A DNA stretch of 64,000 bases from an uncultured Dehalococcoidia bacterium. Lineage in GTDB: Bacteria > Chloroflexota > Dehalococcoidia > Lucifugimonadales > UBA3495. A program made the translations under genes and the position numbers. This document shows, piece by piece, positions 452 through 56,133 of this stretch. The stretch is taken from contig OY282494.1 of the NCBI GenBank assembly GCA_958296385.1, positions 539,925 through 603,924 of the forward strand, read 5' to 3'. The notes under the pieces were generated by a model that saw only the letters and a program-made list of their open reading frames with translations, made no database searches and was not told the DNA's origin. The first letter of the stretch is position 1, and every line of letters begins with the position of its first letter.

Positions 452-630
452 CTCATTCCCGATACAATAGCGTTCTGCCGATACCGTCGGCGCACCGCCA
501 TTATACATCAGCCGCCCGCCCCAAATCCGTTATACTTACTAACGCTAATTCCACTGTCCCGCGGCCCCGCCATCCCACCGGCGCTGCGCCGCCCCACGCC
601 ACGATTTACAGTTACAGGCAGGTTTGCACA

Positions 631-2415
631 ATGCTTGACCACGGCACCCCCGAACACGCCGCCAGCGACCCCATCGCCGCCCACCGCCACCGTCTGCGCC
701 ATTCGGCCGCCCACGTGATGGCCGATGCCGTACTGCAACTCTTCCCCGACGCCAAAGTAGCCATCGGCCCCCCCACCGCCGACGGCTTTTACTACGATTT
801 TGAGGTTGAGCGTCCTTTCACCCCGGAGGATTTGGAACGCATTGAGGCATTGATGCTGGAAACCATCCGCAGCAACACCCCTTTTGTCCGTGAGGAACTC
901 GACCGCCCCGATGCCCAATCCATGTTCGCGGCCCAGCCTTTCAAGCAGGAGATTATTGACGACCTGCCCGACGAAACCACCCTCAGCATTTACCGGCACG
1001 GCGCGTTCACCGATTTGTGCCAGGGCCCCCACGTTGACCGCACCGGCGATATTGCCGCCGTCAAACTGCTCCACACCGCCGGCGCTTACTGGCGGGGCGA
1101 TGAGAACCGCCCCATGCTCCAGCGCATTTACGGCACCGCCTTTGAGTCCCGGCAGGAACTCGACGCCCACCTGGAACGCCTGGCCGAAGCCGAGCGCCGC
1201 GACCACCGCGCCTTGGGCCGCCAGCTCAACCTCTACACCGTCCACGAGGACATCGGCCCCGGCCTCATCGTCTGGCACCCCAAAGGCGGCGTCATGCGCT
1301 CCCTCATTGAGGACTACTGGCGCGCTATTCACTACCGCCGGGGCTACAGCATCGTCTATTCCCCCCACATCGGCCGCGCCCGCCTCTGGCAAACCAGCGG
1401 CCACCTCGATTTCTACCGCGACAGTATGTACGCCCCCATGGAAATTGACGAGCAGGAATACTTCCTCAAGCCCATGAACTGCCCCTTCCACATCCAAATC
1501 TACCGCTCCGCCCTGCGCAGCTACCGCGAACTGCCCCTGCGCATCGCCGAGTTGGGCACCGTATATCGCTACGAACGCAGCGGCGTCCTCCACGGCCTAA
1601 TGCGCGTCCGCGGCTTCACCCAGGACGACGCCCACATCTTCTGCCTCCCCGACCAGGTAGCCGCCGAAGTCGGCGATGTGCTTGACCTCACTTTTGAGAT
1701 TATGTCCGCCTTCGGCTTTGACGAATACGACATCATGCTCTCCACCTGCCCGGACAAATTCGTCGGCGAACCCGATATGTGGGAGCACGCCACCGAATCC
1801 CTCCGCGCAGCCCTCGTATCCCGCAACCTGCCCTACGCCATCGACGACGGCGGCGGCGCCTTCTACGGCCCCAAAATTGACGTCAAGATCAAAGACGCCC
1901 TGGGCCGCGACTGGCAATGCACCACCGTCCAGTTCGACTTCAACCTCCCGGAACGCTTCGACCTAACTTTCCAGGACGACCAGGGCAACCGTTCCCGCCC
2001 CTACATGGTGCACCGCGCCATACTAGGCTCGTTAGAACGGTTCTTCGGCGTACTGGTCGAGCACTACGCCGGCGCCTTCCCCCTCTGGCTCGCCCCCGTC
2101 CAGGCCACCGTAATCCCCATCGCCGACCGCCATATCCCCTACGCCAATCAAGTAGCCGAGCAGCTACAAGATGCCGGCTACCGCGCCGAAGTGGACGACC
2201 GCAGCGAGCGCATGAACCAGAAGATCCGCCAGGCCCAACTCCAGAAAACCCCCTATATGCTGGTAGTAGGCGATCGAGAACAAGAGGCCAACGCCGCCGC
2301 CGTCCGCACCCGCGATGGCGAGAATCTAGGCGCCCTCCCCCTAACCGAAGTCCTGCAACGCCTTGACGCCGAACTAGAGGGCACCCCAGCCGCCGCAACC
2401 CGCCGTCGCCCATAA
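631..2415 (+). CDS. thrS: Threonine--tRNA ligase
   Basis: RHSAAHVMA, DLCQGPHV, GAYWRGD, KPMNCP, RVRGFTQDDAHIF, AFYGPKID and C-terminal anticodon domain. Start taken at ATG 631; the upstream ORF extension overlaps prfB. Confidence 0.97.
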   Translation: MLDHGTPEHAASDPIAAHRHRLRHSAAHVMADAVLQLFPDAKVAIGPPTADGFYYDFEVERPFTPEDLERIEALMLETIRSNTPFVREELDRPDAQSMFAAQPFKQEIIDDLPDETTLSIYRHGAFTDLCQGPHVDRTGDIAAVKLLHTAGAYWRGDENRPMLQRIYGTAFESRQELDAHLERLAEAERRDHRALGRQLNLYTVHEDIGPGLIVWHPKGGVMRSLIEDYWRAIHYRRGYSIVYSPHIGRARLWQTSGHLDFYRDSMYAPMEIDEQEYFLKPMNCPFHIQIYRSALRSYRELPLRIAELGTVYRYERSGVLHGLMRVRGFTQDDAHIFCLPDQVAAEVGDVLDLTFEIMSAFGFDEYDIMLSTCPDKFVGEPDMWEHATESLRAALVSRNLPYAIDDGGGAFYGPKIDVKIKDALGRDWQCTTVQFDFNLPERFDLTFQDDQGNRSRPYMVHRAILGSLERFFGVLVEHYAGAFPLWLAPVQATVIPIADRHIPYANQVAEQLQDAGYRAEVDDRSERMNQKIRQAQLQKTPYMLVVGDREQEANAAAVRTRDGENLGALPLTEVLQRLDAELEGTPAAATRRRP

Positions 2416-11829: not shown

Positions 11830-13125
11830 ATGACCCAGCGCAATCAGATTGAGCAGGATTTGCTCGCCAAAGCCGCCCGCTATCTCCCCGGCAGCGGCAC
11901 CGGCAACACCAATTACCCGGACGAGTTGAAGTTCCTCGTCCGTGAGGGCAAGGGCGGCCGCGTTTGGGACGTGTCCGGCAACGAGTACGTTGACTGGCTG
12001 ATGGGTTCCGGCCCCATGATTCTCGGCCACGCGCACCCCGCCGTAACCGAGGCGGTTTCCCAGGCCGTGGGCCGCGGCTCCACCTTTTTTACCACCAACG
12101 AGCAGGCCGTTATGTTAGCCGAGGAACTGGTCAACGCCGTCCCCTGCGCCGAGCAGGTTCGTTTCACCACCAGCGGCACCGACGCCTGTTTCCAGGCCAT
12201 GCGGGTGGCCCGGGCTTTCACTGGCAAGGAGAAAATCCTCAAGTTTGAGGGCGGTTTCCACGGCACCAGCGACTACGCCATGATGTCCGTCTTCGCCTCC
12301 GCCTCCGTCGAGTTTCCCCAGGCCGAAGCCAACAGCGGCGGCATCCCCCGCGCCATCAACGACTTGATGCTGATTTCCCAGTTCAACGACCTCGATACCA
12401 CCGCCGCCATCATCGACGCTCATAAGGACGAAATCGCCGCCGTAATCGTTGAACCCCTGCAACGCACCCTGGCGCCCAACCCCGGATTCCTGGCCGGCCT
12501 CCGCAAGCTCACCGCCGACGCCGGCTTGCTGCTGATTTTTGACGAAGTGGTAACCGGCTTTCGTCTGGCCTACGGCGGCGCCCAGGAGTTCTACGGTGTA
12601 ACCCCCGACCTCTGCTCCGTCGGCAAGATTATGGGCGGCGGCTACCCCCTGGCCGCCACCATGGGCCGCGCCGACGTTATGTCCGTTTATGACCGTGCCG
12701 CCGTCTCATCCGACGACTACGTTGACCAGATTGGCACCCTCAACGGCAACCCCATCGCCTGCGCCGCCGGACTAGCCACCCTCGCCGAGCTGCGGCAAGA
12801 TGGCGTGTACGACCGGATGCGCGCCGTAGGCGGGCAGCTGCGCCAGGCGTTGGCCGACGCCTGCACCGAGCAGGGCTTTACGGTGCAAAGCGTTGGCGAG
12901 GATGCCGTATTTGACATCTACTTCGCCGACCACGCCGTGCAAAACTACCGTGACGGCCTCGCCGCCGACGCCGCCACCCTGGGCAAACTCAACGCCGGCC
13001 TGCTGGAACGCCGGATCATCAAATCCTGGCCCCAAAAGTTCTACCCCTCCATCGTCCACACCGACGAGGACGTAGCAGAAACCATCGCCGCCATCCAGGC
13101 CGTAGCCCCCACCCTCCGGAGCTAA
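11830..13125 (+). CDS. Class III PLP aminotransferase, glutamate-1-semialdehyde aminomutase-like
   Basis: WDVSGNEYVD, GPMILGHAHP, FEGGFHG, LLIFDEVVTGFR, GKIMGGGYP, GTLNGNP. ATG 11830 follows GGAGG. Confidence 0.9.
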   Translation: MTQRNQIEQDLLAKAARYLPGSGTGNTNYPDELKFLVREGKGGRVWDVSGNEYVDWLMGSGPMILGHAHPAVTEAVSQAVGRGSTFFTTNEQAVMLAEELVNAVPCAEQVRFTTSGTDACFQAMRVARAFTGKEKILKFEGGFHGTSDYAMMSVFASASVEFPQAEANSGGIPRAINDLMLISQFNDLDTTAAIIDAHKDEIAAVIVEPLQRTLAPNPGFLAGLRKLTADAGLLLIFDEVVTGFRLAYGGAQEFYGVTPDLCSVGKIMGGGYPLAATMGRADVMSVYDRAAVSSDDYVDQIGTLNGNPIACAAGLATLAELRQDGVYDRMRAVGGQLRQALADACTEQGFTVQSVGEDAVFDIYFADHAVQNYRDGLAADAATLGKLNAGLLERRIIKSWPQKFYPSIVHTDEDVAETIAAIQAVAPTLRS

Positions 13126-38533: not shown

Positions 38534-39148
38534 ATTGCCTTTGTGCCGCCCCTTTTTGGGGGCGGTTATGTGATGGCGCTGGTCGCCGTGCGCGTGGTCG
38601 GGGCCTAGCTTCAATTGTGCCGCCCCCGTTCGGGAACGGTTATCCGTGCGGTATTCGTTATACCGTTTCAGGGCGCCGTGGCTTCAATTGTGCCGCCCCC
38701 GTTGAGGAGCGGTTATATGCAGGTCATACCGCCCGCCATCCTTGTTAGCCTCGCTTCAATTGTGCCGCCCCCGTTGGGGAGCGGTTATGTCGTTGCGGCG
38801 TCGTCGTTGAATACGGGTATCCACCTTCAATTGTGCCGCCCCCGTTGGGGAGCGGTTATTGGGGTGCCGGTGGCAAAAACGACGGCCTCCTTACTCCTTC
38901 AATTGTGCCGCCCCCGTTGGGGAGCGGTTATTACGATGTACCGCTCGCGGATGGGGCGGTCGGTCTCCCTTCAATTGTGCCGCCCCCGTTGGGGAGCGGT
39001 TATATCCGACGGCGGCGGCCATCAAAACGCAATATGAAAGCCTTCAATTGTGCCGCCCCCGTTGGGGAGCGGTTATCATCTACGATGACCTACAGCAATT
39101 CTTTCTGGTGTCACTTCAATTGTGCCGCCCCCGTTGGGGAGCGGTTAT
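38534..39148 (-). CRISPR. CRISPR array, 9 repeats / 8 spacers (35-38 nt), type I-G-like repeat
   Basis: Plus-strand repeat (G/C/A)CTTCAATTGTGCCGCCCCCGTTGGGGAGCGGTTAT at 38534 (degenerate), 38608, 38681, 38753, 38824, 38896, 38968, 39041 and 39113. Mismatches accumulate at the left end, so the leader is on the right and the repeat ends ATTGAAG(C/G). Confidence 0.98.
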
Positions 39149-39346
39149 CGCTATCGGACTAGCGAATGCGCCGTAGTATGGCTGATTTGCGCTTTTTTGT
39201 GTGGTTTTGGCATTCGCTTTTCGTATTATGACATTTGGCGCCTCTTTAACGAATTGGCGTGCAATCGGCGCGCTTTGCGAAAGGTTTCTGTTGAGACGGT
39301 TCATTGCTAAGCCTCTCGCATCGTCCGGCGGCATTGCCTGGCGAGT
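39149..39346 (-). promoter_or_regulatory. CRISPR leader
   Basis: AT-richer non-coding gap between the array and the last cas gene, with extended -10-like TGtCATAAT near 39225-39233 on the minus strand. Confidence 0.7.
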
Positions 39347-40336
39347 TCAGACTGGTGTGGCGGGGGTGAAGTTGCGCTGTTTTCCCTCGGTTACTCGCCG
39401 GCTTCGGTACACTGCTGCGATGCCGAGCGGCATCAACCTTTCGTGCCTGGGCTCATCCCGCCCGAGTTCTTGCAGTCGCATTACCGATGCTATGGTAGCG
39501 ATGTTGAGCGGACAAATCCAGATGGGCCAGCTGACGTAGATGCCGCGTCTGCGTTCTTGTCTGAACCCGGTGGTTGCTAACCCGGCACCGCTGATTGCGG
39601 TGGGGAACAGCGGCAGCGCTTCAATGGCCAGCCGATTAGCGCCGCGCTCGGTGGTGGCCGGTTTGCTGCTGGGTTCAGCCCAGCGCAAGGCGTACCGGCG
39701 TTCCTCGGCCGGGTCCCATCGCAAACCCAATCTGAGGTCTTTACGCTCCCACGGCTCAAACAGGCTGCGGCGCAGATGCTCGGCGTCGGTCTGCCGTACC
39801 GTTTGCAGCATTGTATCCAGAAAATGCTGGTGACCGGCCCCGGCCATGGTACGCAGGGCCGTGTCCTGAATGTTGCCTTTTTTATCTCGCGTCGTGGTGT
39901 TCTCGCAGCCGAAAGACGTTATGAAATCAGCGAAACGACGGTCTGAGCAAGTGGCTTTACCCTGCGCGGTTTTTGCCAATTCGCGGAATTCATCAGTGCT
40001 GATGGTGAGATTCTTGCCGATGGCCAGCGCGTTGTTGTCGGTGTTGCGCAGGTAGTCTGCCAATCGTTGGGGTAATTCTGCCGGCTCCAGGGCCGTGTTG
40101 CCGGACAGCGTGGGGCGCCATGGGCCGTCATCTTGCTGCCAGCACATCCGCCAATCGGCGGCGGGCTCTATTGCGGTTACGGATTGCAGGGCGCCTACTG
40201 CGGCCAGAAAGCCGAGCAGATTGCCGCCGTCGAGTCCTTTGAGCGCGAACTTGCGTTGTGCCACAGGCTGTTGGGGGTTGCCGTCCGAGTCGGGCGTTGG
40301 CGCAAAGTCAAAGTGGAGCTGTCCGTTGCTAGTCAT
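39347..40336 (-). CDS. Type I-G CRISPR-associated protein, probable short Cas8-like large subunit
   Basis: Overlaps the cas3 stop. LKGLDGGNLLGFLAAVGAL N-terminus and LAIEALPLFP resemble Cas8g/Csx17-type motifs, but it is only 329 aa. Confidence 0.7.
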   Translation of the reverse strand: MTSNGQLHFDFAPTPDSDGNPQQPVAQRKFALKGLDGGNLLGFLAAVGALQSVTAIEPAADWRMCWQQDDGPWRPTLSGNTALEPAELPQRLADYLRNTDNNALAIGKNLTISTDEFRELAKTAQGKATCSDRRFADFITSFGCENTTTRDKKGNIQDTALRTMAGAGHQHFLDTMLQTVRQTDAEHLRRSLFEPWERKDLRLGLRWDPAEERRYALRWAEPSSKPATTERGANRLAIEALPLFPTAISGAGLATTGFRQERRRGIYVSWPIWICPLNIATIASVMRLQELGRDEPRHERLMPLGIAAVYRSRRVTEGKQRNFTPATPV

Positions 40337-43289
40337 CGTGGGTTTCCTCCCATTGGCTGCGGCTCCAGTCGGCGACGCGGAGAATGGCCTCCAGGTAGGC
40401 CAGTCCCCACCAGCCGTACTTGCGCGTCAGACGCCAGTAGCGTTCCGTTACGCCGGAGTCGAGGCGTTCCAGCCCCGTGGGGCCTTGCCCGCGCATGGCC
40501 ACGTCATCGAGTATAAACTCGGCGGCGCGCTTTTCTAAATCGGCCTGGCGAAAGGGGGCAAAGGGGCGGCAATGGCCGTGGTGGCTGGCAATCAGATGCA
40601 GGGCCAGGTCTCTGGCGTCCGGGTCGTCGGGCAGCAGGGCCGGGTTGCTTTCGGCCATCCGAACCGACATCAGCTCGTGACGGACGCGGATGTTGGCGGC
40701 GTTGGGCGATTTGGCAAGCGGCTGCGCGGCGTCGTAGTAAGGATTGCCGCCGTGCATTGCCTGCTGGAACAGGGGGTCGGCCTTGCCGATGTCGTGGAGC
40801 AGGGCGGCGCAGCGAATTGCCGTTAGTTCCGGCCCGTCAATGCCGCACCCTATTGCGTATTGCACTGCCCAATCCGCTACACCGTGGGAATGGTCGGACA
40901 GGAGAACCGTGTTGGCGCGGCGGGAATGGCTAATATCGTTCTCATCATCCGGATGCTCACCCTGCCCGCCGGTTATGGGCAAAGGATGGCGGGGCCGCAA
41001 GACCAGCGAGTGTGCGCTACAAGCGACAATACGGAAACCCACGCTGCGCCGCCGCAGAAATCCGGCGTTTTCGGACAAATATCGGTACCCGGCAGGCAGA
41101 TCCGCATTGGCAAGTAACTGTAGTAATACCTCTACCTCCTCTGCCATTTCCGCTGCGGTTAAATCGGGCCGGCTAATCTCGGACAGAGCATCCCGTACTA
41201 TCTGCGGAGATGCGGGGGCCTCCGGAGCGGCGTCATCGGACGCAACCTGCTGCCAGCTCTGTAAAAGCTCCGGGCTGATGCGCAGCGTAGGCCGGCCGCG
41301 CGCTTTGCGGTTCGTTTCGTCGCCGATGTCCAGCGTTGCCGGGCCGCCCGGCGTATAATCCGGCAAATCGCCGATGCGGTGAAAGTCGCCGGGGTGTCCG
41401 GTGGGGATGACTACAGTATCGCCGGGGGCAATGTCTCGGGGGTTGGCCGTTATGTCATTGCGGACGGTTTGCCCTCCGCGCCACCGGATAACCCGACGGC
41501 TGTTCGGGCTGGTGTTGGCGGGCGGCGGCGCATCGGGATGCTGGCCGGGCGCATCGCCGCTGTCGTCATCTCCGGCGGCGTCGGCCAGCCAGCTGCGGAA
41601 CGCATACAGGGGAACGGGCAGGGTTTCCAAAGAGTTTGGCGGGCAGGCTTGCAGAATCTCGCTGGCCTGGTCGATGCTGTCCAAATCCAGGCCGGCACGC
41701 CAGCACACCTGCACGTCGGCCGGCCGGTCATCTTTACCGTGGAGGTAAGTAGCTACGGACGGAGACGGCCCGGTTTCCGGTTCCGGCCCCGTCTGCGCCC
41801 AGGCGTCAATGTGCGCGGGCAGCATAACGGTGGCGTTCTCCGCCGGCGGATTCAGCCGCTCCTGGGCCTCCGGCGATGTATTCGCCAGCAACTCTGCGAC
41901 GTTGGCGATGGCAAAGTTTATTGCGCCCGACGTGCCGGCCTGTTCGTTCAGCCACTGCCAAGTTGCGCTGATGGCGTTGCCGTATATGGGATCGGGGGTT
42001 TTGGCGTCCACCTGGTCGGCGCGGATGATGATGTGTGCGAGAGCGGTTATATCCCGACCGGTGCGGTTCAGCCGCCCGAAACGCTGGCGCAGGGCGTCCA
42101 GACCGGCGCACTCGGTGACCAGGCCGTCAAAGTCCAGGTCGGCGCCGATTTCCAGCGTTTGGGTGGCCACGGCGATTAGCGGGCGGGCGCCGGCGCGGGT
42201 TTGCGAATCAGCATACGGGCTGACGCGCGCCAGAGTGTGCATGACCTGTTCCCGTTCCTGCTGGCGCATCCGTCCGGTTAAGAGGACGGTTTCGGTTATG
42301 TCATGCTCCCGGATGATGCGATAGGCTGCCCGCGCGGTCGCTACCCGGTTGGCGAAAACTACTGTTGTTGCGATGCCTTGCCCAGTCAAATGCAGTGCGG
42401 CGTCAGCTAACTCTTGCCCTAGTGCGGCGTGGACATCGCTGTTGCGGGGAACCCGTTTTGCCACGGCCAGCGTTGCCGGTTTGGATGCCATTTGCCGGCG
42501 TCCCAGCGGGTGATCGGGGTCAGTCGGCTGCGACGACGTATCGCGAAAATGCCGGCTTTCCGTGATTTCGCCGGGGGGAGTGGCCGACATTATGACGGCC
42601 TGGAACGGCGCACCAGTCGGGTATTCCGTCCATTGGCGATACTTCTGGATGGCCCGGACGGTTTGCAAGAACGGCTGCGCGCAGTGTGCCTCGTCCAGGA
42701 TGATGAGGCTGTCGTTGGCGGCCAGCCCGGCGTGTACCGGCCAGACGCCGCGCCCTTTGCCGTAAGCGCGGAACAGCAGGGCCGAGCCTACCTGGTCAAC
42801 TGTGGTGGTGATAATCGCCGGCTGGCGGGGGTTTCTTTCCCAGCTGCTGGACTGGCGGATGCCGCCGCGCAGCCGGTACACCGCCAGCGGTGGGGCGTTA
42901 CTGCCGCCAGCCAGTAACCGCAGCCGGTCGGCTACGATTTTGACGATGCCATCGCCGGCGTCTGCCAGCTTCCTGGCAAGGGATTCTGCACGGTCGTAGG
43001 TCTGGTCAACGATGTTCCGGCGGTCCACGGTGTAAAACAGACGCCGGGGGTGCGGGCTGGTTTCCTGCTCCGGGTCGACCAGGGCGGCCAGGGCGAACAC
43101 CGCTATGTCCAGGCAGGCCGTCTTGCCGGCGGCGGTGGGCAGATTGACGGCCTCAGGCCATATATTGCCGGCAGACTGCATCACTTGTTCCGCCATACGC
43201 TGCTGCCAGTTGTAGGGTTCGTAGGGCCACAACGCTTGGAAAAACGGCCCGAAATCGGCGGGGGTTAGATTGTCGTTTGCGATGCTCAT
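40329..43289 (-). CDS. cas3: Type I-G Cas3 helicase with C-terminal HD nuclease
   Basis: PYNWQ, LPTAAGKT, TVDQVGSALLFRAYG, DEAH, MSAT, QRFGRLNR, then LSDHS...LLHDIGKAD...RHE...SHHG at the C-terminus; ATG 43289. Confidence 0.95.
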   Translation of the reverse strand: MSIANDNLTPADFGPFFQALWPYEPYNWQQRMAEQVMQSAGNIWPEAVNLPTAAGKTACLDIAVFALAALVDPEQETSPHPRRLFYTVDRRNIVDQTYDRAESLARKLADAGDGIVKIVADRLRLLAGGSNAPPLAVYRLRGGIRQSSSWERNPRQPAIITTTVDQVGSALLFRAYGKGRGVWPVHAGLAANDSLIILDEAHCAQPFLQTVRAIQKYRQWTEYPTGAPFQAVIMSATPPGEITESRHFRDTSSQPTDPDHPLGRRQMASKPATLAVAKRVPRNSDVHAALGQELADAALHLTGQGIATTVVFANRVATARAAYRIIREHDITETVLLTGRMRQQEREQVMHTLARVSPYADSQTRAGARPLIAVATQTLEIGADLDFDGLVTECAGLDALRQRFGRLNRTGRDITALAHIIIRADQVDAKTPDPIYGNAISATWQWLNEQAGTSGAINFAIANVAELLANTSPEAQERLNPPAENATVMLPAHIDAWAQTGPEPETGPSPSVATYLHGKDDRPADVQVCWRAGLDLDSIDQASEILQACPPNSLETLPVPLYAFRSWLADAAGDDDSGDAPGQHPDAPPPANTSPNSRRVIRWRGGQTVRNDITANPRDIAPGDTVVIPTGHPGDFHRIGDLPDYTPGGPATLDIGDETNRKARGRPTLRISPELLQSWQQVASDDAAPEAPASPQIVRDALSEISRPDLTAAEMAEEVEVLLQLLANADLPAGYRYLSENAGFLRRRSVGFRIVACSAHSLVLRPRHPLPITGGQGEHPDDENDISHSRRANTVLLSDHSHGVADWAVQYAIGCGIDGPELTAIRCAALLHDIGKADPLFQQAMHGGNPYYDAAQPLAKSPNAANIRVRHELMSVRMAESNPALLPDDPDARDLALHLIASHHGHCRPFAPFRQADLEKRAAEFILDDVAMRGQGPTGLERLDSGVTERYWRLTRKYGWWGLAYLEAILRVADWSRSQWEETHDD

Positions 43290-43306
43290 TCCGTTATCGC
43301 TCACTC

Positions 43307-44725
43307 TCACGCGGGGCGGCACAGGCCATAGCCCCGGTAGCGTCCGCTGCCGAGTATGACTGGCCCGCGCACCGGCGCGTCGAATATGATGGTGGCGTGG
43401 GTGTGCTGCCATTCGCCGTTGCCGCCCTGGTCGCTGCGGCGGCGCAGCCGGGGGAACTCCCGCGCCGGCGGGACGCCTTCCAGCATTGACACCGGGCCCA
43501 ACGCCACCGCAACGGGCGAGGGCAAGCCGATACGCCGGCACTGCTCGGCAACGTTCTCACGCTCCAGCCGGGCTTTGTCCGGCCCTTTGTAGTAGCGGTC
43601 AAGGGTCACCGGGGTTACGGTGTGCCAAGTATCGGATGGACGCGTCCAGGTGTCGGCTTGCAGATTATGTCGCGCCGGCTGACGGGCGCTTGACTCCGGC
43701 TGGCGCAGCGTTGCCTCGTTCCACCGGCCGCGCATTATTTGGTGCGATTTCAGTTCGCCATTCGTTTCATAGCCGAGGAGATTGTGGAAAAGACGGTTTG
43801 CTTCTGCGTCGGGTACAGTGCGGGGCAGGGCAATCGCCAGCCCCATAACGCGCCCGTTGGCGTGTTGACGCCCGACGAAAGGCAGCGGTATCAGGGCAAC
43901 GTGGGGACTCTCGCTGCGCCCGCCGTCCGGGGTATGGCCGCTAATCCATTCCGGCAGCGGTTCCGGGCATTGGGCCAGAATCAGATTGCGAAAGGCGGCG
44001 GTGAGCTGGCCGGCTGCTCGTAAATCCAGGCCGGCGCCGGTGGCCTCAAACACTATCAGACGGTCGGTGAAAACGCTGTGCGGGCGCTCCGTGGTATCTG
44101 CGGCGCCGGCGCGGAGATAGCCTACCCAACGCCGCGCCTCCGGCCGCTGGCCACTCGCGTAGGTGGTGGACAGGTCGTCGAGCCGGCCGTCGTAGGGGAC
44201 ACGCATCTGGTAGCCGCCCGGCCCGGCTGCCGGCCGCCAGTTTGCGGGGGGCGGGTTGTCGTCAACCCACGCTTGCGCCAGCGATGACGAATGCCCTACG
44301 CTGGTGAGGCTGGCGGTGAGCCGTTGCAATGCGGGCAGATGCTCGGCCGGGTCGGCATCCGGCCAAATGATATGCGCGGTGGGGTTGTCCAGTGTCGCAG
44401 TGGCGAATTGACGAGGCTGCCGGCTGCGACTTTCCGGCAATAGCTGCCGGCGTTGCGCCGGAGGGCGGTCGTCATTCACCGGGACATAGTGCCGGACTGC
44501 TTGCCGGGTCTGGCACTCGCCGGCGGCCAGGGACGGCGTGGCTTGGCTTTCCAGCCAGCGCAGCGCCTGTTCGGCGTCGGCATCCTGGCCGGTTTCACCC
44601 CAGGCGGCCACCAGCGCCATAAACACCCGGTCGGGATGCGGGGGCCATTCTACGGCCCCGCCGGGCGAGCCGTAAGTGGATGCCGCGACACGGCCATTCA
44701 GGTAGTTGATTGCGATGGCAAACAT
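43307..44725 (-). CDS. csb2: Type I-G Csb2 (Cas5-Cas6 fusion)
   Basis: EWPPHPDRVFMALVA, HYVPVND, WISGH, TVTPV, terminal G-loop GPVILGSGRYRGYGLC; ATG overlaps the cas7 stop. Confidence 0.93.
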   Translation of the reverse strand: MFAIAINYLNGRVAASTYGSPGGAVEWPPHPDRVFMALVAAWGETGQDADAEQALRWLESQATPSLAAGECQTRQAVRHYVPVNDDRPPAQRRQLLPESRSRQPRQFATATLDNPTAHIIWPDADPAEHLPALQRLTASLTSVGHSSSLAQAWVDDNPPPANWRPAAGPGGYQMRVPYDGRLDDLSTTYASGQRPEARRWVGYLRAGAADTTERPHSVFTDRLIVFEATGAGLDLRAAGQLTAAFRNLILAQCPEPLPEWISGHTPDGGRSESPHVALIPLPFVGRQHANGRVMGLAIALPRTVPDAEANRLFHNLLGYETNGELKSHQIMRGRWNEATLRQPESSARQPARHNLQADTWTRPSDTWHTVTPVTLDRYYKGPDKARLERENVAEQCRRIGLPSPVAVALGPVSMLEGVPPAREFPRLRRRSDQGGNGEWQHTHATIIFDAPVRGPVILGSGRYRGYGLCRPA

Positions 44726-45957
44726 CAATCCTGCTCCGGCGATTGGACGTCCAAATCCTGGCTGCGCTTTACCAGTTCCATCAGTTCGTCCGAAGGTACA
44801 AGGGATATGATGCTTTCCCAAGGCAGGCCGCTGCTTTTAGCCGCGTCAATGGCGGCGTTGAGCAGTTGCAGGGCGGACGTTTCGTCCAGCGGAAATACGG
44901 CGGGCGGCTGGCCGGGCTGTTTCAACAGTTCCCAGACCACCGGATTCTGGGGAATTAGATGGCAGCGGGAACGCAGGTCGGTATCGGTGCGGGCCAGCGT
45001 GCCGGCGGCCAACCCCAGCGCGGCCAGAACGGTACGAGCGGCAACATCAACGGCGGCGTCGGAATCTACGGCACCATTCAAGGGAAAGCGCAGGCGGCGG
45101 ATTACGGCCAGCGACAGCGTGGTGGTTTGCACGGCCTCGCTGATGGTAAAGCCGCCGTCAGAAATAGCCGGCGTTACATTGCCGTGGTTTGCTTTTGACG
45201 GATTTCCGGGGTTGCCTTTGTCATTATCTCTGGGATTATACGCCTTGGGTTTGTTCCTTTCTGAAAGGGCTTCATTTTCGGACAAAGTCCAGTCAGGAGA
45301 TACGTCGTTTTGCAACGCGCGTTCATACAAAGTGCCCGCTTGGATGCTGATCGAGGCCGGGTCAATCCGGCTGGCGGTTTTCTTGCCCGGTACGGCGTTG
45401 TGGCCGACAATTTCCGAGGTTATGGCTCGCTGAAACTTGACGCCTGCGCCACCTCTGGGGCCGGTGGAATCCCAAAAGCCGAACAGCAGCGCGGTAGGGC
45501 AGATGCCGAATATGCCGGCGGCGTTGTCAATGCGGGCGTGGTCCAGCAGCTTGCCGGTGTCGGAGGCGCGGAACATCTTGCCGTCCAAACGGCTGTCCCG
45601 GAACAGGGCGTCGGCGATGCGGTGCGGCGCTTCCAGGCTGGTCACCGTGAACTTACGGGGCAGGTCGTTCCGGTCAAACTGTACTTCCAACAAAGGCAAG
45701 TTGACGCGCCCGGAACGGCGGGACGCCAGCAACGCCAGTTCCATACGGTTGGCTTGGCTGGCTACGGAATCCAGCAGTACGCACTCCCTGATTTCTCCGG
45801 TATCAGGATTGATGCGCTGCTCGGTAGCATACTGCCCGCCTTCGTAGGTAGGTGGGAATACTTTATCGCCGGGCCCGCCGGCCGGCTGGTATTTGGTGAT
45901 ACAGCGGAAAGCGGCGGCGTTGCTGGCAACCGCTTCCCGGAGGGTTTGTATGTCCAT
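44725..45957 (-). CDS. cas7: Type I-G Cas7 (Csb1)
   Basis: QPAGGPGDKVFPPTY, LLDSVASQANRME, APHRIAD, LLFGFWDS, DLRSRCHL. Confidence 0.94.
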   Translation of the reverse strand: MDIQTLREAVASNAAAFRCITKYQPAGGPGDKVFPPTYEGGQYATEQRINPDTGEIRECVLLDSVASQANRMELALLASRRSGRVNLPLLEVQFDRNDLPRKFTVTSLEAPHRIADALFRDSRLDGKMFRASDTGKLLDHARIDNAAGIFGICPTALLFGFWDSTGPRGGAGVKFQRAITSEIVGHNAVPGKKTASRIDPASISIQAGTLYERALQNDVSPDWTLSENEALSERNKPKAYNPRDNDKGNPGNPSKANHGNVTPAISDGGFTISEAVQTTTLSLAVIRRLRFPLNGAVDSDAAVDVAARTVLAALGLAAGTLARTDTDLRSRCHLIPQNPVVWELLKQPGQPPAVFPLDETSALQLLNAAIDAAKSSGLPWESIISLVPSDELMELVKRSQDLDVQSPEQD

Positions 45958-46062
45958 TATGGTATTCTCCAAGTTGGGAATTTGCCGAGTTAGTAAAGCC
46001 GAACAATTGTTCACTGGCATTTTAGGCCGATTGGCACTTTTCGTCAAACTCGGAGCACGCTG

Positions 46063-47354: not shown

Positions 47355-47672
47355 ATGACATTTGGACAAGCAATCACGCAGGCCCGCCGGGACAAGAAGT
47401 TGAGCCAGAAGCAGGTAGCGGCCGGAACCCGGAAAGAAGACGGGCAGGCCATCTCCGCTCAATACCTGAACGATATTGAGCATGACCGGCGCAACCCGCC
47501 TGGCGAACATATCGTTCGCCAGTTGGCGAATACACTGGACTTGGAGCTGGACTATCTGCTGTTTCTGGCCGGGAGATTTCCCTCGGACGTGCTGGAACTG
47601 TCTCGTGATGAGGAAGGCATCAAAACGGCCATGAGAGCTTTTCGAAGCAGCCTGAGGGAGCAAAGCCGATGA
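47355..47672 (+). CDS. XRE-family HTH regulator (CapH-like)
   Basis: TFGQAITQARRDKKLSQKQVA...ISAQYLNDIEHDRRNPP. Confidence 0.9.
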   Translation: MTFGQAITQARRDKKLSQKQVAAGTRKEDGQAISAQYLNDIEHDRRNPPGEHIVRQLANTLDLELDYLLFLAGRFPSDVLELSRDEEGIKTAMRAFRSSLREQSR

Positions 47673-48388
47673 GATGGGTCAAAGATACGACCGGGCGGTT
47701 CCCGGTGCGACCGTACTATCCCCAGGAAGACCTGGATAGTCTGAGTGAAGAATGGATTATTGGCTTCCTGTGCGAGCGGTACGGCGAGGCTGAGTTCCCG
47801 GTGTCCACTGCGGACCTGACCGTTATGATCGAGTGCGATACTTCCGACCTGGACCAGTACGCCGATCTCAGCGCGGAGGGTGGGGAAGAGGTAGAGGTGC
47901 AGGGATTGACCCTGTTTTATCCGGATAGGAAACCCGAGGTGAAAATTGATCAGGAATTGGCCGATGCAGATTACCGGGAGCATCGGCTGCGGACGACCCT
48001 TACCCACGAGTTCGCCCACGTAAAGTTGCACGCGCGGCTGTGGCCGTTCGATCAGCCAAGGCTTTTCACTGATGCAGAGGAAGCGTCCGGGCCTATGTGC
48101 AAAAGGCCGGGAGACATCGGGGGATACGGCTCTGACTGGATGGAGTGGCAGGCCGGTTACGTGTCAGGGGCCATCCTGATGCCGATTACTCGGCTAAAGC
48201 AGTTAGTCCATGCGACCTTTGACGCATGGGGAGCATTCGGAGCAATACCAACCGCGTCCGTCAAAGGAACGGCTCTCATTGCCAGGGTAGCGGGGCAGTT
48301 TGAAGTTTCGAATGATGCCGCGCGGGTAAGGCTGGCGCAATTGGGTTACTTGACGGGCGGGCCTGAGGGACGGCCGCTGGGATTTTGA
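47669..48388 (+). CDS. ImmA/IrrE-family Zn metallopeptidase (CapP-like)
   Basis: RLRTTLTHEFAH (HExxH), EWQAGYVSGAILMP, FEVSNDAARVRL; ATGA-coupled to the HTH gene. Confidence 0.9.
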   Translation: MRWVKDTTGRFPVRPYYPQEDLDSLSEEWIIGFLCERYGEAEFPVSTADLTVMIECDTSDLDQYADLSAEGGEEVEVQGLTLFYPDRKPEVKIDQELADADYREHRLRTTLTHEFAHVKLHARLWPFDQPRLFTDAEEASGPMCKRPGDIGGYGSDWMEWQAGYVSGAILMPITRLKQLVHATFDAWGAFGAIPTASVKGTALIARVAGQFEVSNDAARVRLAQLGYLTGGPEGRPLGF

Positions 48389-48459
48389 TAAAAGGCTTGC
48401 ATTTTTTTGCCGGCTATAATACGCTGATTAGCGTATCCGCTGATTCAGGTTTCTATGCT

Positions 48460-49494
48460 GTGAATGCAGAACTCGAAAAACCAATCCGCAGGTCGGACAC
48501 GATCCTGCAAACCCGCCGTGAACTTTTGCCCTGGCCCGACGATGCCACGTTCAAGATTTTGTCCCTAGACGGCGGCGGTATAAAGGGTATTTTTCCGGCG
48601 GGTATCCTGACTTACCTGGAAGAGCAGTGCCTGGGCGGTCAGCCTATCGGGGGCTATTTCGACCTGATTACCGGCACCTCTACCGGCGGCATCATAGCTC
48701 TCGGATTGGGCGCTGGAATGACGGCTCGTTCCCTGTTGGATTTGTATGTTAATGAGGGCCGCCACGTATTCCCGCCGCAGCAACGCGCCGGCGGACCGTT
48801 GCCGTGGCTGCGTAATCTGTTTCGCAATCGATATGACCGGGCCGCTCTGGACGAATTGCTTCGTCAGACTTTGGGGGCAAAAACGCTTCGGGAATCCAGG
48901 TATCGGTTGCTGATACCGGCAACCGAGGGTAAGCATGGCGATCCTGCGGTGTACAAAACGCCGCACCATCCCGGGTATTTTCTGGACGGCGACAAGCCCA
49001 TGGCCGAAGTGGCCGCCGCGACGTCTGCGGCGCCTACCTACCTGAAGCCGATGGTACAGGACGGGTACATCCTGCTGGACGGGGGCATCTGGGCTAACAA
49101 CCCAACCATGATGGGCCTGGTCGAAGCTTTGACCTGCTTTACGGTGCAGCGGGAGAACATTGCGATACTGAGTATTGGGTGTGGGCAGGACGACTTTCGG
49201 ATTGACCGCAAGCAGGCGGCCGGAGCCGGGCAATACCAATGGCGCAAAATAATCGAAGTGGCCATGCACTACCAATCCCTGACGGCCGTCAACCAAGCCG
49301 GGCTGTTAATTGGCCGTGATAAGGTTACGCGGCTGGACAGGCCGGCGGGCGCGGAGCGCGTTGACCTGGACGATTGGACGAAGGCCAGACGGCTGCTGCC
49401 GGAGGAGGCGTCTGCTGTCGCAGAACAATATGCCGACCGGATAGCCGGGACGTTTTTTACCCAGACTGCGGCGCCCTTCACGCCGCTGGCATAG
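48460..49494 (+). CDS. capV: CBASS patatin-like phospholipase effector
   Basis: ILSLDGGGIKG, GTSTG, TSAAPTY, DGGIWANNP, VYKTPHH; directly upstream of the CD-NTase. GTG 48460 is the likely start. Confidence 0.9.
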   Translation: MNAELEKPIRRSDTILQTRRELLPWPDDATFKILSLDGGGIKGIFPAGILTYLEEQCLGGQPIGGYFDLITGTSTGGIIALGLGAGMTARSLLDLYVNEGRHVFPPQQRAGGPLPWLRNLFRNRYDRAALDELLRQTLGAKTLRESRYRLLIPATEGKHGDPAVYKTPHHPGYFLDGDKPMAEVAAATSAAPTYLKPMVQDGYILLDGGIWANNPTMMGLVEALTCFTVQRENIAILSIGCGQDDFRIDRKQAAGAGQYQWRKIIEVAMHYQSLTAVNQAGLLIGRDKVTRLDRPAGAERVDLDDWTKARRLLPEEASAVAEQYADRIAGTFFTQTAAPFTPLA

Positions 49495-49511: not shown

Positions 49512-50399
49512 ATGGCTAAGAACAATCAGCAATTCGCCGAGTTCCTCAAGGATGAGGTGAACCTCAATAAAAGTCGGCTGGATCGTCTGGAGACCGCCGT
49601 GGGAGGGGTGAACGGTTACCTCAAGGATAACCTGACCGGATACCAGAGTATGGAACGGCAGGGTTCCTATGCCTTAAGTACGCTCATCAAACCCGTGGAC
49701 GACAACGACGAGTACGATGCCGACATCCAAATCGTGATGAACCCGAACCCCAATTGGGATGCTAAGGATTACGTCCTCGAGATTAGGCGGACGCTGGCGG
49801 GCAACAAGACTTACGCAGACAAGCTCAGGCTCAAGACCAGGTGCGTAACCGTCGATTATGCCGGCGACTTTCACTTGGACGTGGTGCCGAGGGTGACCAG
49901 CAAGGGCAAGCACTACGTCTGCAACCGGATTGACAACGAGTTCGAAGAAACCGACGGTAACGGATACCGCGAGTGGTTCAACGAGAAGAACCGCATCACC
50001 CGCGGCAATCTGAAGCAAGTGGTGAAATATCTCAAGTACCTGCGCGACCACAAGAACAGTTTCACCGCCAAGTCGATTTTGCTGACGACGCTTGCCGGTA
50101 ACGCTATCAGGGAGTCCGGCACAAGAACTCCGGAGGTGAGTTCCGTTGCCGACACGCTGGTTACCGTCCTCTCCCGGATGGACAATTACTTGCAGCGGCA
50201 TTCCAATATGCCGGAGATTAAGAATCCGGTGCTGCGTGTGGAGAACTTCAACCGGCACTGGGACCAGCGGAAATACGCCAATTTCCGGGACCGTATCCGG
50301 TCGTATGCGAGTACGGCGAAACAGGCAAAAGCTGCGCCATCGGGTGAAAAGTCCATCCAGCTCTGGCAGGAACTGTTTGGTGACGGGTTCGGTAAATAG
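49512..50399 (+). CDS. cGAS/DncV-like nucleotidyltransferase (CD-NTase, SMODS)
   Basis: QGSYALSTLIKP...EYDADI, CVTVDYAGDFHLDVVP, KYLKYLRD, NPV..ENF, WQELFG. The frame continues past the TAG to 50498. Confidence 0.93.
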   Translation: MAKNNQQFAEFLKDEVNLNKSRLDRLETAVGGVNGYLKDNLTGYQSMERQGSYALSTLIKPVDDNDEYDADIQIVMNPNPNWDAKDYVLEIRRTLAGNKTYADKLRLKTRCVTVDYAGDFHLDVVPRVTSKGKHYVCNRIDNEFEETDGNGYREWFNEKNRITRGNLKQVVKYLKYLRDHKNSFTAKSILLTTLAGNAIRESGTRTPEVSSVADTLVTVLSRMDNYLQRHSNMPEIKNPVLRVENFNRHWDQRKYANFRDRIRSYASTAKQAKAAPSGEKSIQLWQELFGDGFGK

Positions 50400-50502
50400 G
50401 CGGGTTCCGGGACTGGCCGCAACGCTCGTACCCCGGTGGCGCCCGCTGCGTCTATACCCGTAGCACCACGGCAGGGCGAAGCCGACAGGTTCGGATAGGG
50501 CG

Positions 50503-52038
50503 ATGATGGACGACCATTTCTTTACGGAGTCGCTTGAGGAGTTCCAGCGCGAAATGGCGGCGGCCGGCTTCGAGCCGGTCGCGGCCGCCGACCCGCCACG
50601 CTGGAGAGGGCCAATCCATCCGGCCTTCGCTCCGCTCACGGACGCGAAGACTATGGACATCGTGATTACGCCCGGATGGCACTTTCAGCCTCCCGCTCTG
50701 CTGGTGGATGGCCTTGATACTAATCACTCAATGCTGAACGGGTTGGTTTGTATGTGGCAAGATGGGGATGCCAGCCTCGAATGGACCACTATGCCAGGAT
50801 TTTTCTCACGCATCGCAGATTGGTGCGAGAATGCCAGGAACGGCTGGGCAGGCGATGACCTGGTGTATGACGCCTTTCTGAACTTCCAAAAGAAACTGGC
50901 GGGAGTTGCGACCTTTAATCTGCCTGAACTCAATATGCGCAAAGGCGGTTGTGGGGATGTTTATGGCATTGTGAACGCAGATTTACAGAGGATTGATGTT
51001 AAGCGGGGACGGTCTAACTCGCCCGGCCAGCTACGCGGCCTGTGGTTTCACGCGGGAGTGTTGGACAATCCTCCGCCCCGGCGACTTTCGGAAGTGTTTC
51101 GCTGCTTGCCCAGGAACCAGAGGAAAGGGCTGGAGCGCGAACTCGGCAATCGCCGGAGGCCCGAACCATGCTCGGTCAGCGGCGGAGTGGACATCATCCT
51201 GTTTTGTTGGGAGCATCGCGGCCGGCCCGACTTGCTGGTGATGGTGTGTGAGGGAATGAACGACCAAGTTGATGCGGTTGCGTTGCAGCCAGGACCGATT
51301 GACGAAGACAGCCTTATCCTGCGGGCTGGCCCGGATGCGCCGCTGCTGCGGACTTGCAAAGTGACGCTGTTCGGGGCTGGAGCGTTGGGCGGTTACGTTG
51401 GGGTGGCGCTTGCGGAGAGCGGGTTGGGCTCTCTGGACGTTGTGGACGGCGATACGCTCTTGCCGGGCAACGTGGTCAGGCACGTCGCCGGCCACGACCA
51501 GGTGGGCAGACCCAAGGCGCAGGCAGTCCGCTACGTGATTGAAAAGCACGCGCCCTGGACTGGGGTTGCGGAGTTCTTTGAATCTCCGGTTACTGCGAGC
51601 AAAATACGCGAGCGCATCGCTAACGCTGATATGGTCGTTGACGCTACGGGTAACGAGGCTTTTACCGGGGCGTTGGCCGTGGCGGCGCGGGGTATTGGAA
51701 TACCGCTGGTCTCCGGGGCGCTTTACCGGGGCGGCAGTATTGCGCGGGTGCAGCGGCAGGCGCTGCCGGACGATGTTCCCCTGCACCGGCGTGAGGATAC
51801 GCCGCAATTTCCGGCTATTCCCGCCGGCGATGGCCGCTATGATTTTGCGTCGCCCGCGCTGGGCTGCTCCGCTCCGGTGAACAACGCTCCGCCGGCTTCG
51901 GTAACCGCGTGCGCTGCCCTGATTGTCCAAATGACCCTGGATGCTCTCACCGGCCGGTTTGAGTTCAACGACGAAGTGATCGACGTTTATCGGAGTATCG
52001 CAGAGGCGCCGTTTAATCGTGTCGGTAGAGTGGGATAG
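50503..52038 (+). CDS. cap2: Cap2-like E2-E1 (ThiF) fusion
   Basis: N-terminal E2-like NHSMLNGLVCMW; C-terminal GAGALG, DGDTLLPGNVVRH, VVDATG and catalytic GCSAP. Confidence 0.88.
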   Translation: MMDDHFFTESLEEFQREMAAAGFEPVAAADPPRWRGPIHPAFAPLTDAKTMDIVITPGWHFQPPALLVDGLDTNHSMLNGLVCMWQDGDASLEWTTMPGFFSRIADWCENARNGWAGDDLVYDAFLNFQKKLAGVATFNLPELNMRKGGCGDVYGIVNADLQRIDVKRGRSNSPGQLRGLWFHAGVLDNPPPRRLSEVFRCLPRNQRKGLERELGNRRRPEPCSVSGGVDIILFCWEHRGRPDLLVMVCEGMNDQVDAVALQPGPIDEDSLILRAGPDAPLLRTCKVTLFGAGALGGYVGVALAESGLGSLDVVDGDTLLPGNVVRHVAGHDQVGRPKAQAVRYVIEKHAPWTGVAEFFESPVTASKIRERIANADMVVDATGNEAFTGALAVAARGIGIPLVSGALYRGGSIARVQRQALPDDVPLHRREDTPQFPAIPAGDGRYDFASPALGCSAPVNNAPPASVTACAALIVQMTLDALTGRFEFNDEVIDVYRSIAEAPFNRVGRVG

Positions 52039-53780: not shown

Positions 53781-53862
53781 AGGCGCGCTGCCAATGTAAC
53801 AGTTGGTTTCAGAATGGTTGACGGCGAACTTACAGCCAGCTTTGACGGAGCATACGGATAGA

Positions 53863-56133
53863 ATGAACACGATTGACATTGACAGGCTATTGACGCGGTT
53901 GAACGAGCACGACGCGTTGCGCGCGGTAGATACCGTCAAGACGGGCGCTGTCGAGCGCATCGAACCGCAACTCGCGGGCCAATGGCCCGCAGAACTGAAT
54001 CGGGCTGTTCGCGAGGCGTTGAACGGCATTGGCATACAGCGGCCTTATCAGCACCAGGCTGACGCCATCAGCAAATCGCTGAGCGGCGCAGACGTGGTTA
54101 TGGAATCCCCTACCGCCAGCGGCAAAACACTGGCGTTCACGGCGCCTATGCTCAACTCTCTGCTGCTCAACGAAGGTTCTCATGCGCTGATGATTTACCC
54201 GATGAAGGCTTTGGCCTTTGACCAGCGGGAACAAATCCGGCAGGTTTGCGAACCACTGGAAATCGAATCGTGGCCTTACGACGGAGATACCCCGGATGAC
54301 GTTAAGTCTTGGCTTCGAAAAAGCCCGCCGCAGATTTTGTTGACTAACCCCGAATACCTAAATGCTTCGTTTCTGGGCTGGCGGGAGCTGTGGGATGGAT
54401 TCCTGCGCAACCTGAAATATGTTGTCATCGACGAGATGCACGAGTATCGGGGGTTTTTTGGCGGCAATATGTCGCTTTTGCTGCGACGGTTCTTTTTGCA
54501 TCTGAATCGCATCGGCGTATCGCCCCGCGTATTTTTGTCGACGGCTACCTGCGCCAATCCAGCAGAACACGCGCGGAATCTCACTGGTCGCGACGTAGAA
54601 GTGGTATCTGCACGAAATGTCCTGCGGCCCAAACGGCATTTTATGTTTGTCCGCCCTGATATTCCCGACTTCAGGTATCGGGAGATTTTGCAACGGCGTA
54701 TTGAACAGGCAGCATTAACCGCTCTGTCTGAAGGTTTGCAGACGCTGGTTTTCTGCCCGTCAAAACGATTTCTGGAAGACGCTTTCCGCAATGCACAGAC
54801 TAGGGCCGCAGGGCTTGGTTTAGATGCTGACCGCATATCAGCATTTCACGCAGACCTGAAGAATGATCAGCGGCAAGACATACAGCAGAAGATTAAATCG
54901 GGCGACATTACCATCGTGTTCACAACCAACGCTTTGGAGCTGGGGTTGGACATCGGCGGATTAGACGGTGTGATACTGGCCGGCTTTCCGCCCAGTATCA
55001 TGTCCGCCTGGCAGCAAATCGGACGCGCCGGCCGGGGCTGGAACAGGGATGCTTTTGTGTTGTTCTATGCGATGAACGACCCTATCGACCGCTTTTTCGT
55101 AGGCAACCTGGACGCCTTTCTGGACAAGCCTTTTGATGAGTTGGTGATAGACCCGGACAACGAAGAACTGATTGACAATCACCTGGCTCCCCTAGCTGCC
55201 GAAACCGGCGGGGCAGTTCAGCCCTCAGAAGAGAGCATCTTGGGCAACGCATTTTATGAGGCTGCCAAAAAGGACTCTGGCAAGGTTCCAAAAAATTACC
55301 GGCCGCACTTGCGCCTGAATATGCGGGGTGGTATTGGGCGGTCGTTTGATTTGAAACGAGGGAACGAGGAAGTGGGGCAAATCTCGGCATCACGACGGTT
55401 TCGCGAAGCCTACATCGGGGCCATTTTCACTTTCTTTGGCCAGCGATACCGCGTCCATTCTCACGAAGAGAACGCCGTTGTGCTGGCTGAAGTTGAACCT
55501 AACCTGCGGACGGATGCCGGTTTCTACACCGTAACGACGCTGAGGGACATTTTCAGTGGCTATTCCTACGGGGACATTGAGGTTTATTACGGTTCTTTGG
55601 ACGTAATAACGAACTTCACCGGCTATAAGCTCATAGACGAGCGAAACGGGGAGGAAAAAGGAGCCGGCGGAACTCCCGATGCACAATCGCAGAACAACTT
55701 GCATACCTTCTGGATCAATGTTCCGCAGAGTGAATGCTCCACCGCCGGAATTGGCGCATTGGAGCATATGCTCCGGGTTGGCGCGATGTTCGTCATTCCG
55801 GCAGACCGCTTTGATACCAGTACCCACTCAAAGACCAACGACGAACCCACCGCCTACTATTACGAAAACTACTCCGGCGGTATCGGCGTTGCCAAGAAAT
55901 TGTTTGAGGTATGGCAAACCGCCCTGGCGAAAGGGGTTGAAATTGCCGAGAACTGCGACTGCCGGCTAGGATGCCAGAACTGCATCGAACCGGCTAAATC
56001 GTACAACATCAGCAACGCAGACATCGACAAAGTGCGTGGCGTAGAGCTGGCAAAGAACTTGCTGGCAACGGTTCAAGATGGCCCAGACCATAAATTCCAC
56101 AACGGGCGGATGGTTCCGGTGGGAAATCCATAA
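53863..56133 (+). CDS. SF2 DEAH-box helicase with C-terminal DUF1998 (MrfA/Hrq1/DrmAB-like)
   Basis: YQHQ, PTASGKT, YPMKALAFDQ, IDEMHEY, STATCANP, TNALELGLDIG, QQIGRAGR, terminal CDCRLGCQNC. Confidence 0.92.
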   Translation: MNTIDIDRLLTRLNEHDALRAVDTVKTGAVERIEPQLAGQWPAELNRAVREALNGIGIQRPYQHQADAISKSLSGADVVMESPTASGKTLAFTAPMLNSLLLNEGSHALMIYPMKALAFDQREQIRQVCEPLEIESWPYDGDTPDDVKSWLRKSPPQILLTNPEYLNASFLGWRELWDGFLRNLKYVVIDEMHEYRGFFGGNMSLLLRRFFLHLNRIGVSPRVFLSTATCANPAEHARNLTGRDVEVVSARNVLRPKRHFMFVRPDIPDFRYREILQRRIEQAALTALSEGLQTLVFCPSKRFLEDAFRNAQTRAAGLGLDADRISAFHADLKNDQRQDIQQKIKSGDITIVFTTNALELGLDIGGLDGVILAGFPPSIMSAWQQIGRAGRGWNRDAFVLFYAMNDPIDRFFVGNLDAFLDKPFDELVIDPDNEELIDNHLAPLAAETGGAVQPSEESILGNAFYEAAKKDSGKVPKNYRPHLRLNMRGGIGRSFDLKRGNEEVGQISASRRFREAYIGAIFTFFGQRYRVHSHEENAVVLAEVEPNLRTDAGFYTVTTLRDIFSGYSYGDIEVYYGSLDVITNFTGYKLIDERNGEEKGAGGTPDAQSQNNLHTFWINVPQSECSTAGIGALEHMLRVGAMFVIPADRFDTSTHSKTNDEPTAYYYENYSGGIGVAKKLFEVWQTALAKGVEIAENCDCRLGCQNCIEPAKSYNISNADIDKVRGVELAKNLLATVQDGPDHKFHNGRMVPVGNP

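Follow-up and report, generated by a model that had tools for sequence, protein, structure and literature searches.

A probable lineage-specific nonsense mutation parts a CBASS cyclase from its predicted Cap2-recognition tail in an uncultured Dehalococcoidia bacterium

Introduction

In type II CBASS, the C-terminus of the cyclase (CD-NTase) is disordered and conserved, and Cap2 first adenylates and then conjugates it, as laid out in two primary reports, by Ledvina et al. (10.1101/2022.03.31.486616) and Jenson et al. (PMC10097602). According to these reports, the tail conjugated by Cap2 ends in Gly or Ala. Deleting or mutating the C-terminus of cGAS abolished conjugation there and phenocopied the loss of Cap2; defence against some phages persisted despite this loss (10.1101/2022.03.31.486616, PMC10097602). 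A sequence-only reading of the DNA considered here had taken as its premise that Cap2 conjugates the cyclase via a flexible tail ending in Gly or Ala, which matches what these reports state.

The DNA (the window, a stretch of 64,000 nucleotides) derives from the genome of an uncultured Dehalococcoidia bacterium. It encodes a CD-NTase (SMODS fold) with the GS and DxD...D motifs, an effector in the same operon, and a fused E2-E1 Cap2, all of which are features of type II CBASS. Two further features of such systems are missing, namely Cap3 in the operon and a disordered CD-NTase tail ending in Gly or Ala, the product stopping at K295 under translation table 11. The latter is due to an in-frame TAG codon at the boundary of core and tail. 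It very probably arose by a real, lineage-specific nonsense mutation, which changed the first tail codon to TAG in a type II CBASS of the Cap3-less kind and would uncouple the cyclase from Cap2 priming. The evidence for this reading, and for the alternatives to it, is given below.

Results

Composition of the operon

The features of the operon and of the adjacent CRISPR-Cas locus are compiled in Table 1. The order CapP-like gene, patatin, CD-NTase, Cap2 is common to related loci, and the genes downstream vary; in the window, the gene 3′ of cap2 encodes an MFS transporter on the minus strand. The public records of the relatives are labelled as Dehalococcoidia or SAR202 MAGs.

Table 1. Features of the CBASS operon and the neighbouring CRISPR-Cas locus (positions within the window).
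Feature	Position	Strand	Evidence
CRISPR array, 9 repeats of ~37 nt	38534-39149		
Cas3 helicase with C-terminal HD domain	40329..43541	-	
Cas_GSU0054	43307..44821	-	
Cas_GSU0053	44725..46047	-	
CapH-like HTH regulator (weak match)	47355..47672	+	PADLOC HTH_VI E 1.8e-8, capH E 4.7e-5
CapP-like M78 peptidase regulator (weak match)	47669..48388	+	PADLOC capP E 4.1e-7
Patatin-like phospholipase effector (CapV-like)	48385..49494	+	Pfam Patatin 107.4 bits; PADLOC Phospholipase effector 355.2 bits
CD-NTase as now terminated, 295 aa, whole catalytic core, without tail	49512..50399	+	SMODS PF18144 110.5 bits; PADLOC Cyclase PDLC00793 358.8 bits
In-frame TAG, core/tail boundary	50397..50399	+	Inferred from Ser TCG; relatives GGN, TCN, GCC, ACC, AGA, AAC or CGA
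Cut-off C-terminal tail, 32 codons plus original stop, ending ..GEADRFG	50400..50498	+	22/29 identical to P0004 end
GTG, sole in-frame ATG/GTG/TTG in cut-off tail	50436..50438	+	Direct reading of sequence
cap2, E2-E1 fusion, 511 aa, apparently intact	50503..52038	+	PADLOC E1-E2 PDLC00847 550.2 bits; ThiF 71.5 bits

The CapP-like ORF scored below the cut-off of Pfam Peptidase_M78 (18.8 bits; cut-off, 22), and three related loci (L021, L028, L033) contain an ORF of 240-245 aa at the same position. Because the homologues of the patatin are 343-351 aa long, the real start of its ORF probably lies downstream of the one listed. This protein, which is predicted to be a CapV-like effector activated by cyclic nucleotides, agrees with 35 homologues at all 66 columns for which conservation among them reaches at least 95%. 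The core of the CD-NTase retains all invariant columns of its alignment (A1), including G51 S52, D69 A70 D71, and D123. The match of Cap2 to PDLC00847 spans profile positions 2-512 of 523, and all five conserved cysteine residues are kept. Of 162 conserved columns, five are altered in Cap2, compared with a leave-one-out range of 0-13 in 30 relatives, and its divergence corresponds to 66% identity, compared with 68% (range, 57-86) for other pairs of equal cyclase divergence. Judged from these alignments, the Cap2 and the patatin of the window show no excess decay.

Neither Cap3 nor any other JAB protein was detected at the locus; the sole Prok-JAB match in the 3.30-Mb single-contig genome lies ~494 kb away. 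Likewise, no JAB match over the cut-off was found at the corresponding loci in the genomes of five relatives. Because the operon of the window is devoid of Cap3 and the five relatives' loci have no over-cut-off JAB, the clade looks like a Cap3-less variant of type II CBASS.

A predicted Cap2-recognition tail follows the stop codon

The ORF of the CD-NTase ends with ..LFGDGFGK, directly before the TAG. Past this codon, the frame remains open for 32 codons, AGSGTGRNARTPVAPAASIPVAPRQGEADRFG, up to a second TAG (50496-50498), which is separated from the ATG of cap2 at 50503 by four bases (GGCG). In this respect, the DNA is exactly as the sequence-only reading had described it (TAG at 50397-50399, 32 open codons to the next TAG, 4 nt before the cap2 ATG). 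That the frame is open carries no weight, because this is expected by chance in 41-51% of cases: the expectation from base composition is 0.41, and 1987 of the 3930 ORFs in the genome with at least 200 aa are followed by 32 open codons past their stop.

The encoded residues are more informative. The hidden peptide aligns with the very end of P0004, the nearest homologue, at 22 identities in 29 residues (E 1e-12), and its terminus is the E-A-x-R-F-G-stop conserved in the family (alignment A3, containing the hidden tail and 22 homologous tails). By this measure, what lies hidden past the TAG is the C-terminal Cap2-recognition tail conserved in the family, and the earlier suggestion that it has the character of a Cap2-type tail holds, both in the match to P0004 and in the ..EAxRFG end. 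Unusual residues toward the end of the window's tail, including the D of ..EADRFG, are each found in intact relatives (L065, L066, L050). The last 12 residues are identical to those of relatives at 6.8 positions on average, compared with 8.37 (sd 1.55) in other pairs with the same core divergence; this lower likeness, by ~1 sd, could reflect some relaxed constraint, or nothing.

The type of tail goes along with the type of partner encoded downstream. When the 43 tailed loci were parsed (36 could be used; the other seven were dropped since no ORF start lay near the start of the match), 30 of the 36 encoded a Cap2 of 450 aa or more directly downstream of the CD-NTase gene. An ORF followed the CD-NTase gene in 34 of the parsed loci, and its start was located between -4 and +6 nt from the CD-NTase stop. 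A sister group of cyclases (13 loci: L044, L051-L053, L055, L057, L059, L060, L062, L067, L097, and others) carries a tail ending in ..PRKPYAR-stop, which is followed by a gene for an E2-only protein (213-220 aa; PADLOC E2 PDLC00872). CD-NTase and E2 are fused in one ORF of 565-576 aa at three further loci (L035, L039, L079). The tail is absent from eight loci, and the three of these for which ORFs were listed (L080, L082, L084) have no Cap2. The family displays a three-way link, i.e., ..EAxRFG with E1-E2 Cap2, ..PRKPYAR with E2-only proteins or E2 fusions, and no tail with no partner, which could guide work on substrate recognition.

Whether Cap2 of the window and the cut-off tail form a complex was addressed by structure prediction. 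The median score was 0.47, that of the best of three controls 0.00; the runs agreed in at least 85% of the contacts, with a partner pLDDT of at least 48. Of 80 solved complexes, 58 attain the mark applied, as do 2 of 110 mismatched pairs, but scores of 0.60 or lower at the mark were obtained for just 7 of the 80 solved complexes and for both mismatches. The prediction, thus, lends weak support to binding of the cut-off tail by Cap2, and since a similar complex has been solved (7to3), the pass may reflect memory.

The stop codon is present in independently built contigs

The TAG could be a sequencing or assembly error, with a sense codon as the true one and an enzyme of full length, which was one of the options offered by the sequence-only reading. 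Such an error is conceivable inasmuch as the genome is a single-contig assembly of the metagenome type with reads from one sample, and as two other loci (L043, L047) have frameshifted tails, possibly through assembly errors in G-rich runs. However, contigs built independently from four runs (depth 181, 137, 83, and 61) cover 50057-51400 with no difference to the window and carry the same TAG. All four runs stem from one public sample, probably the source sample of the genome, and in none of them was an alternative contig found at the TAG site, with the proviso that contigs drop rare variants, so that a minority sense allele could stay hidden. Furthermore, the change is a substitution rather than an indel and lies outside any homopolymer, and the exact 295-aa product is recorded on six contigs, which may not be independent of each other. 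An error is, therefore, very unlikely to account for the TAG.

Two of the four runs also yielded another contig at 49826-50003 (depth 21-26, versus 67-87 for the main one), which ends short of the TAG site. Because it differs at 17 of 178 positions within the cyclase gene, it represents a related cyclase of another strain or species in the same sample.

Relatives carry a sense codon and an uninterrupted tail

Among the best 120 database matches, a length of 295 aa was exhibited by the window's own product only; the remaining 119, at 78-85% identity, have lengths of 326-347 aa. When 25 homologues were aligned with the read-through translation, every one of them had S, G, A, or T at the TAG column, and every one ended with ..EAR(R/G)(F/M/I)G. 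At the level of DNA, an uninterrupted tail of the ..EAxRFG type with a sense codon at the respective site was present in 43 of 78 loci from other species. The residue at this site is mostly Gly (27 loci: GGC 17, GGT 6, GGG 4) or Ser (9 loci: TCC 4, TCT 4, TCG 1), besides Ala (2; GCC), Thr (2; ACC), Arg (2; AGA and CGA, 1 each), and Asn (1; AAC). Because TCG (locus L028) is the only one of these codons that is one step away from TAG, and because the nearest homologue, the protein P0004, has Ser at the TAG column, the ancestral codon was, most simply, Ser TCG, changed to TAG.

A tail motif behind an in-frame stop was found in none of the 78 loci, all three frames being scanned. At one of them (L047), the motif is out of frame; this is a frameshifted copy with its Cap2 displaced and N-terminally cut. 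Within the genus, eight matches of 75-80% identity (in 5 genomes) emerged from 53 other genomes, none with an internal stop. The closest relative is 85% identical. The collections searched contained no copy of the same species from another sample, and a metagenome scan yielded one locus, at 81% identity. In-frame TAG codons were also encountered in two congeners (G008, G024) and rejected as further cases; at 45% identity, these genes belong to a tail-less clade that naturally stops there, and no tail sequence follows.

The sequence-only reading had proposed to ask of homologues whether TAG and tail are conserved together. The tail recurs, in 43 of the 78 loci, and the TAG in none of the 78. 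This speaks for the first of its options, a recent nonsense mutation, given that the relatives have a sense codon and that TCG, a one-step precursor, is observed among them.

Programmed use of the stop codon

It had also been proposed that the stop is read through conditionally, i.e., that a full-length cyclase which Cap2 can conjugate is made only under suppression of UAG, as could be brought about by a phage that recodes TAG and supplies a suppressor tRNA, the stop being a sensor of infection. The tail past the TAG is indeed intact and in frame and retains the conserved motif at its end, and the cap2 behind it is intact. Moreover, phages are known that recode TAG and have suppressor tRNAs (10.1101/2021.08.26.457843, PMC9523058). 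However, conservation of the stop is lacking: it occurs in none of the 78 loci, none of the 119 close homologues, and none of the 8 matches in the genus (75-80% identity). The genome search returned 48 tRNAs, including a SeC tRNA but none with a CUA anticodon, and RF1 (prfA) is present (484.8 bits; cut-off, 423.25). TAG ends 674 of 1965 crude long ORFs (34%), so that its suppression would affect a third of the host genes. The RNA 3′ of the TAG does not fold in any special way (z +0.67; 147 of 200 shuffles fold at least as well), and no Rfam match was obtained after the TAG at E ≤1. Among the literature matches listed that pair CBASS with readthrough, none concerns a cyclase gene, as far as their titles and the openings of their abstracts tell. 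Because the relatives lack the stop, no CUA tRNA was found, RF1 is present, TAG is common, and no special RNA structure is apparent, readthrough is unsupported, and it is even less likely than an error. A sense codon in close homologues was also what the sequence-only reading had named as refuting programmed readthrough, so that the idea does not pass the check set for it there.

No more probable than readthrough as such is the notion of the TAG as a working switch. The host would make an unprimed cyclase of low activity, and an amber-suppressor tRNA of a phage, or a block of RF1, would restore the Gly-ended tail. If this were true, Cap2 would prime the cyclase via the restored tail, leading to abortive infection, and the defence would sense a change of the genetic code. 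Nothing indicates selection for such a switch.

Least likely of all is that re-initiation at the GTG 36 nt after the TAG (at 50436) provides the tail as a separate 20-residue peptide, which Cap2 would use as a free tag: although this GTG is in frame and the predicted complex of Cap2 and tail is weakly supportive (0.47, versus 0.00 for the best control), no Shine-Dalgarno-like or purine-rich stretch is present in the 15 nt before it, the layout occurs only in the window's genome among the 78 loci compared, and there is no sign of expression.

Neighbourhood of the operon and further observations

A CRISPR-Cas locus (window 38534-46047) is located directly upstream of the CBASS operon. Its array had no match in the INPHARED collection of cultured phages. 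Further downstream (53803-56133), a protein with DEAD/Helicase_C and MrfA Zn-binding domains is encoded. In PADLOC, it is matched best by SngC and by helicases of the BrxHI type, which places the CBASS operon within a defence island.

In three congeners (L107, 2182..5130 of G072:C5; L108, 2041..4989 of G077:C1; and L020, on G004:C54), an ORF of 982 aa is located just upstream of the CapP-patatin-CD-NTase-Cap2 operon, preceded by a gene for a 422-aa AAA ATPase. It comprises an N-terminal AAA_16/STAND-like ATPase, a wHTH, TPR repeats, and a C-terminal CD-NTase core (aa 699-981; PADLOC Cyclase, 349.7 bits; 78-81% identical to the core of the window), at which it stops, without a tail. The protein has the appearance of a sensor fused to a cyclase. 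The genome of the window, in which the window's cyclase as query gave one match, showed no such ORF.

At one related locus (L026), the CapP-like gene upstream of the patatin gene is replaced by a small trio (597..2392), consisting of a 131-aa ORF, a 174-aa ORF, and a 292-aa ThiF-like ORF. The 174-aa ORF may be a sub-threshold Prok-JAB match (24.2 bits), if the contig numbering is as assumed, and the trio would be E2/JAB/E1-like.

Elsewhere in the window (11927-12029; genome 551851-551953), ARAGORN called a tRNA-Pro(tgg) whose length of 103 nt far exceeds that of the other tRNAs. Since a tRNA-Pro(tgg) of normal length (75 nt) is encoded at another place in the genome, there are two calls of this kind; the long one may contain an intron or be a miscall.

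Discussion

The in-frame TAG is best explained as a commonplace mutation that has damaged a defence system of known type, namely the lineage-specific nonsense mutation put forward above. Because the core of the cyclase, the patatin, and Cap2 show little decay, and because each unusual residue at the end of the tail recurs in intact relatives, the mutation looks recent relative to neutral decay.

What the lesion entails can be envisaged from the sequences and from the better characterized systems. Because the 295-aa product ends where its tail-less type I relatives end, it would still be folded and is probably a basally active cyclase. By analogy, without the Gly-terminated handle, it could not enter the E1 site of Cap2 and would be neither adenylated nor conjugated, so that priming would be lost. 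Defence would then be weaker against phages for which a primed cyclase is needed. In addition, translation of Cap2 may fall: because the CD-NTase stop has moved to 103 nt upstream of the cap2 ATG, instead of lying within ~6 nt of it, translational coupling may be weakened. Taken together, the operon would resemble a type I system in which Cap2 is left as an orphan.

Defence catalogues would score this operon as a complete CBASS, despite the fact that its priming circuit is probably cut, which calls for caution when "functional" systems are counted in metagenome-assembled genomes. At the same time, the allele shows in nature what the engineered mutants with a deleted tail were made to show in the laboratory; it comes from an environmental lineage, and its clade possesses Cap2 and lacks Cap3.

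Comparison with known systems

Like the type II CBASS of V. cholerae, E. coli, and E. cloacae (DncV/CdnD, CapV or Cap4, Cap2, and Cap3), the locus combines a CD-NTase with a patatin effector and an E2-E1 Cap2. As in those systems, the tail is predicted to be disordered, and it is Gly-ended in the family of the window; the end of E. cloacae CdnD, ..GRFA, given by Ledvina et al. (10.1101/2022.03.31.486616), resembles the ..RFG of this family. The E1 domain of the window's Cap2 matches solved Cap2 structures (7to3_A, E 1.7e-7; 7tsq_A, E 3.1e-8). In contrast to the known systems, the locus is devoid of Cap3/JAB, and Cap2 is shorter (511 aa, versus 600). The cyclase is distant from those with solved structures, the best match being CdnG (8hsb; E 2.6e-15), and in the genome of the window, a stop codon parts the tail from the enzyme.

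In-frame TAG codons followed by a homologous open frame are also known from stop-codon recoding (pyrrolysine; the TAG-to-Gln code 15 of phages). The stop of the window differs from these in that it is not conserved, that neither a CUA tRNA nor special structure accompanies it, and that RF1 is present.

The tail-less type I CBASS cyclases (L080-L087; L005 and L006 from the same genus) end 0-6 residues past ..LFGxxFG(K/R), very much as the truncated product does. Their operons, where listed, are without Cap2, whereas the window keeps an intact cap2. Further counterparts are the engineered cGAS mutants of the two reports (10.1101/2022.03.31.486616, PMC10097602), with a deletion of the C-terminus or of its Gly, in which the core is kept and the handle for Cap2 is gone. 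In contrast to these, the window contains a natural allele, by which the whole tail of 32 residues is removed.
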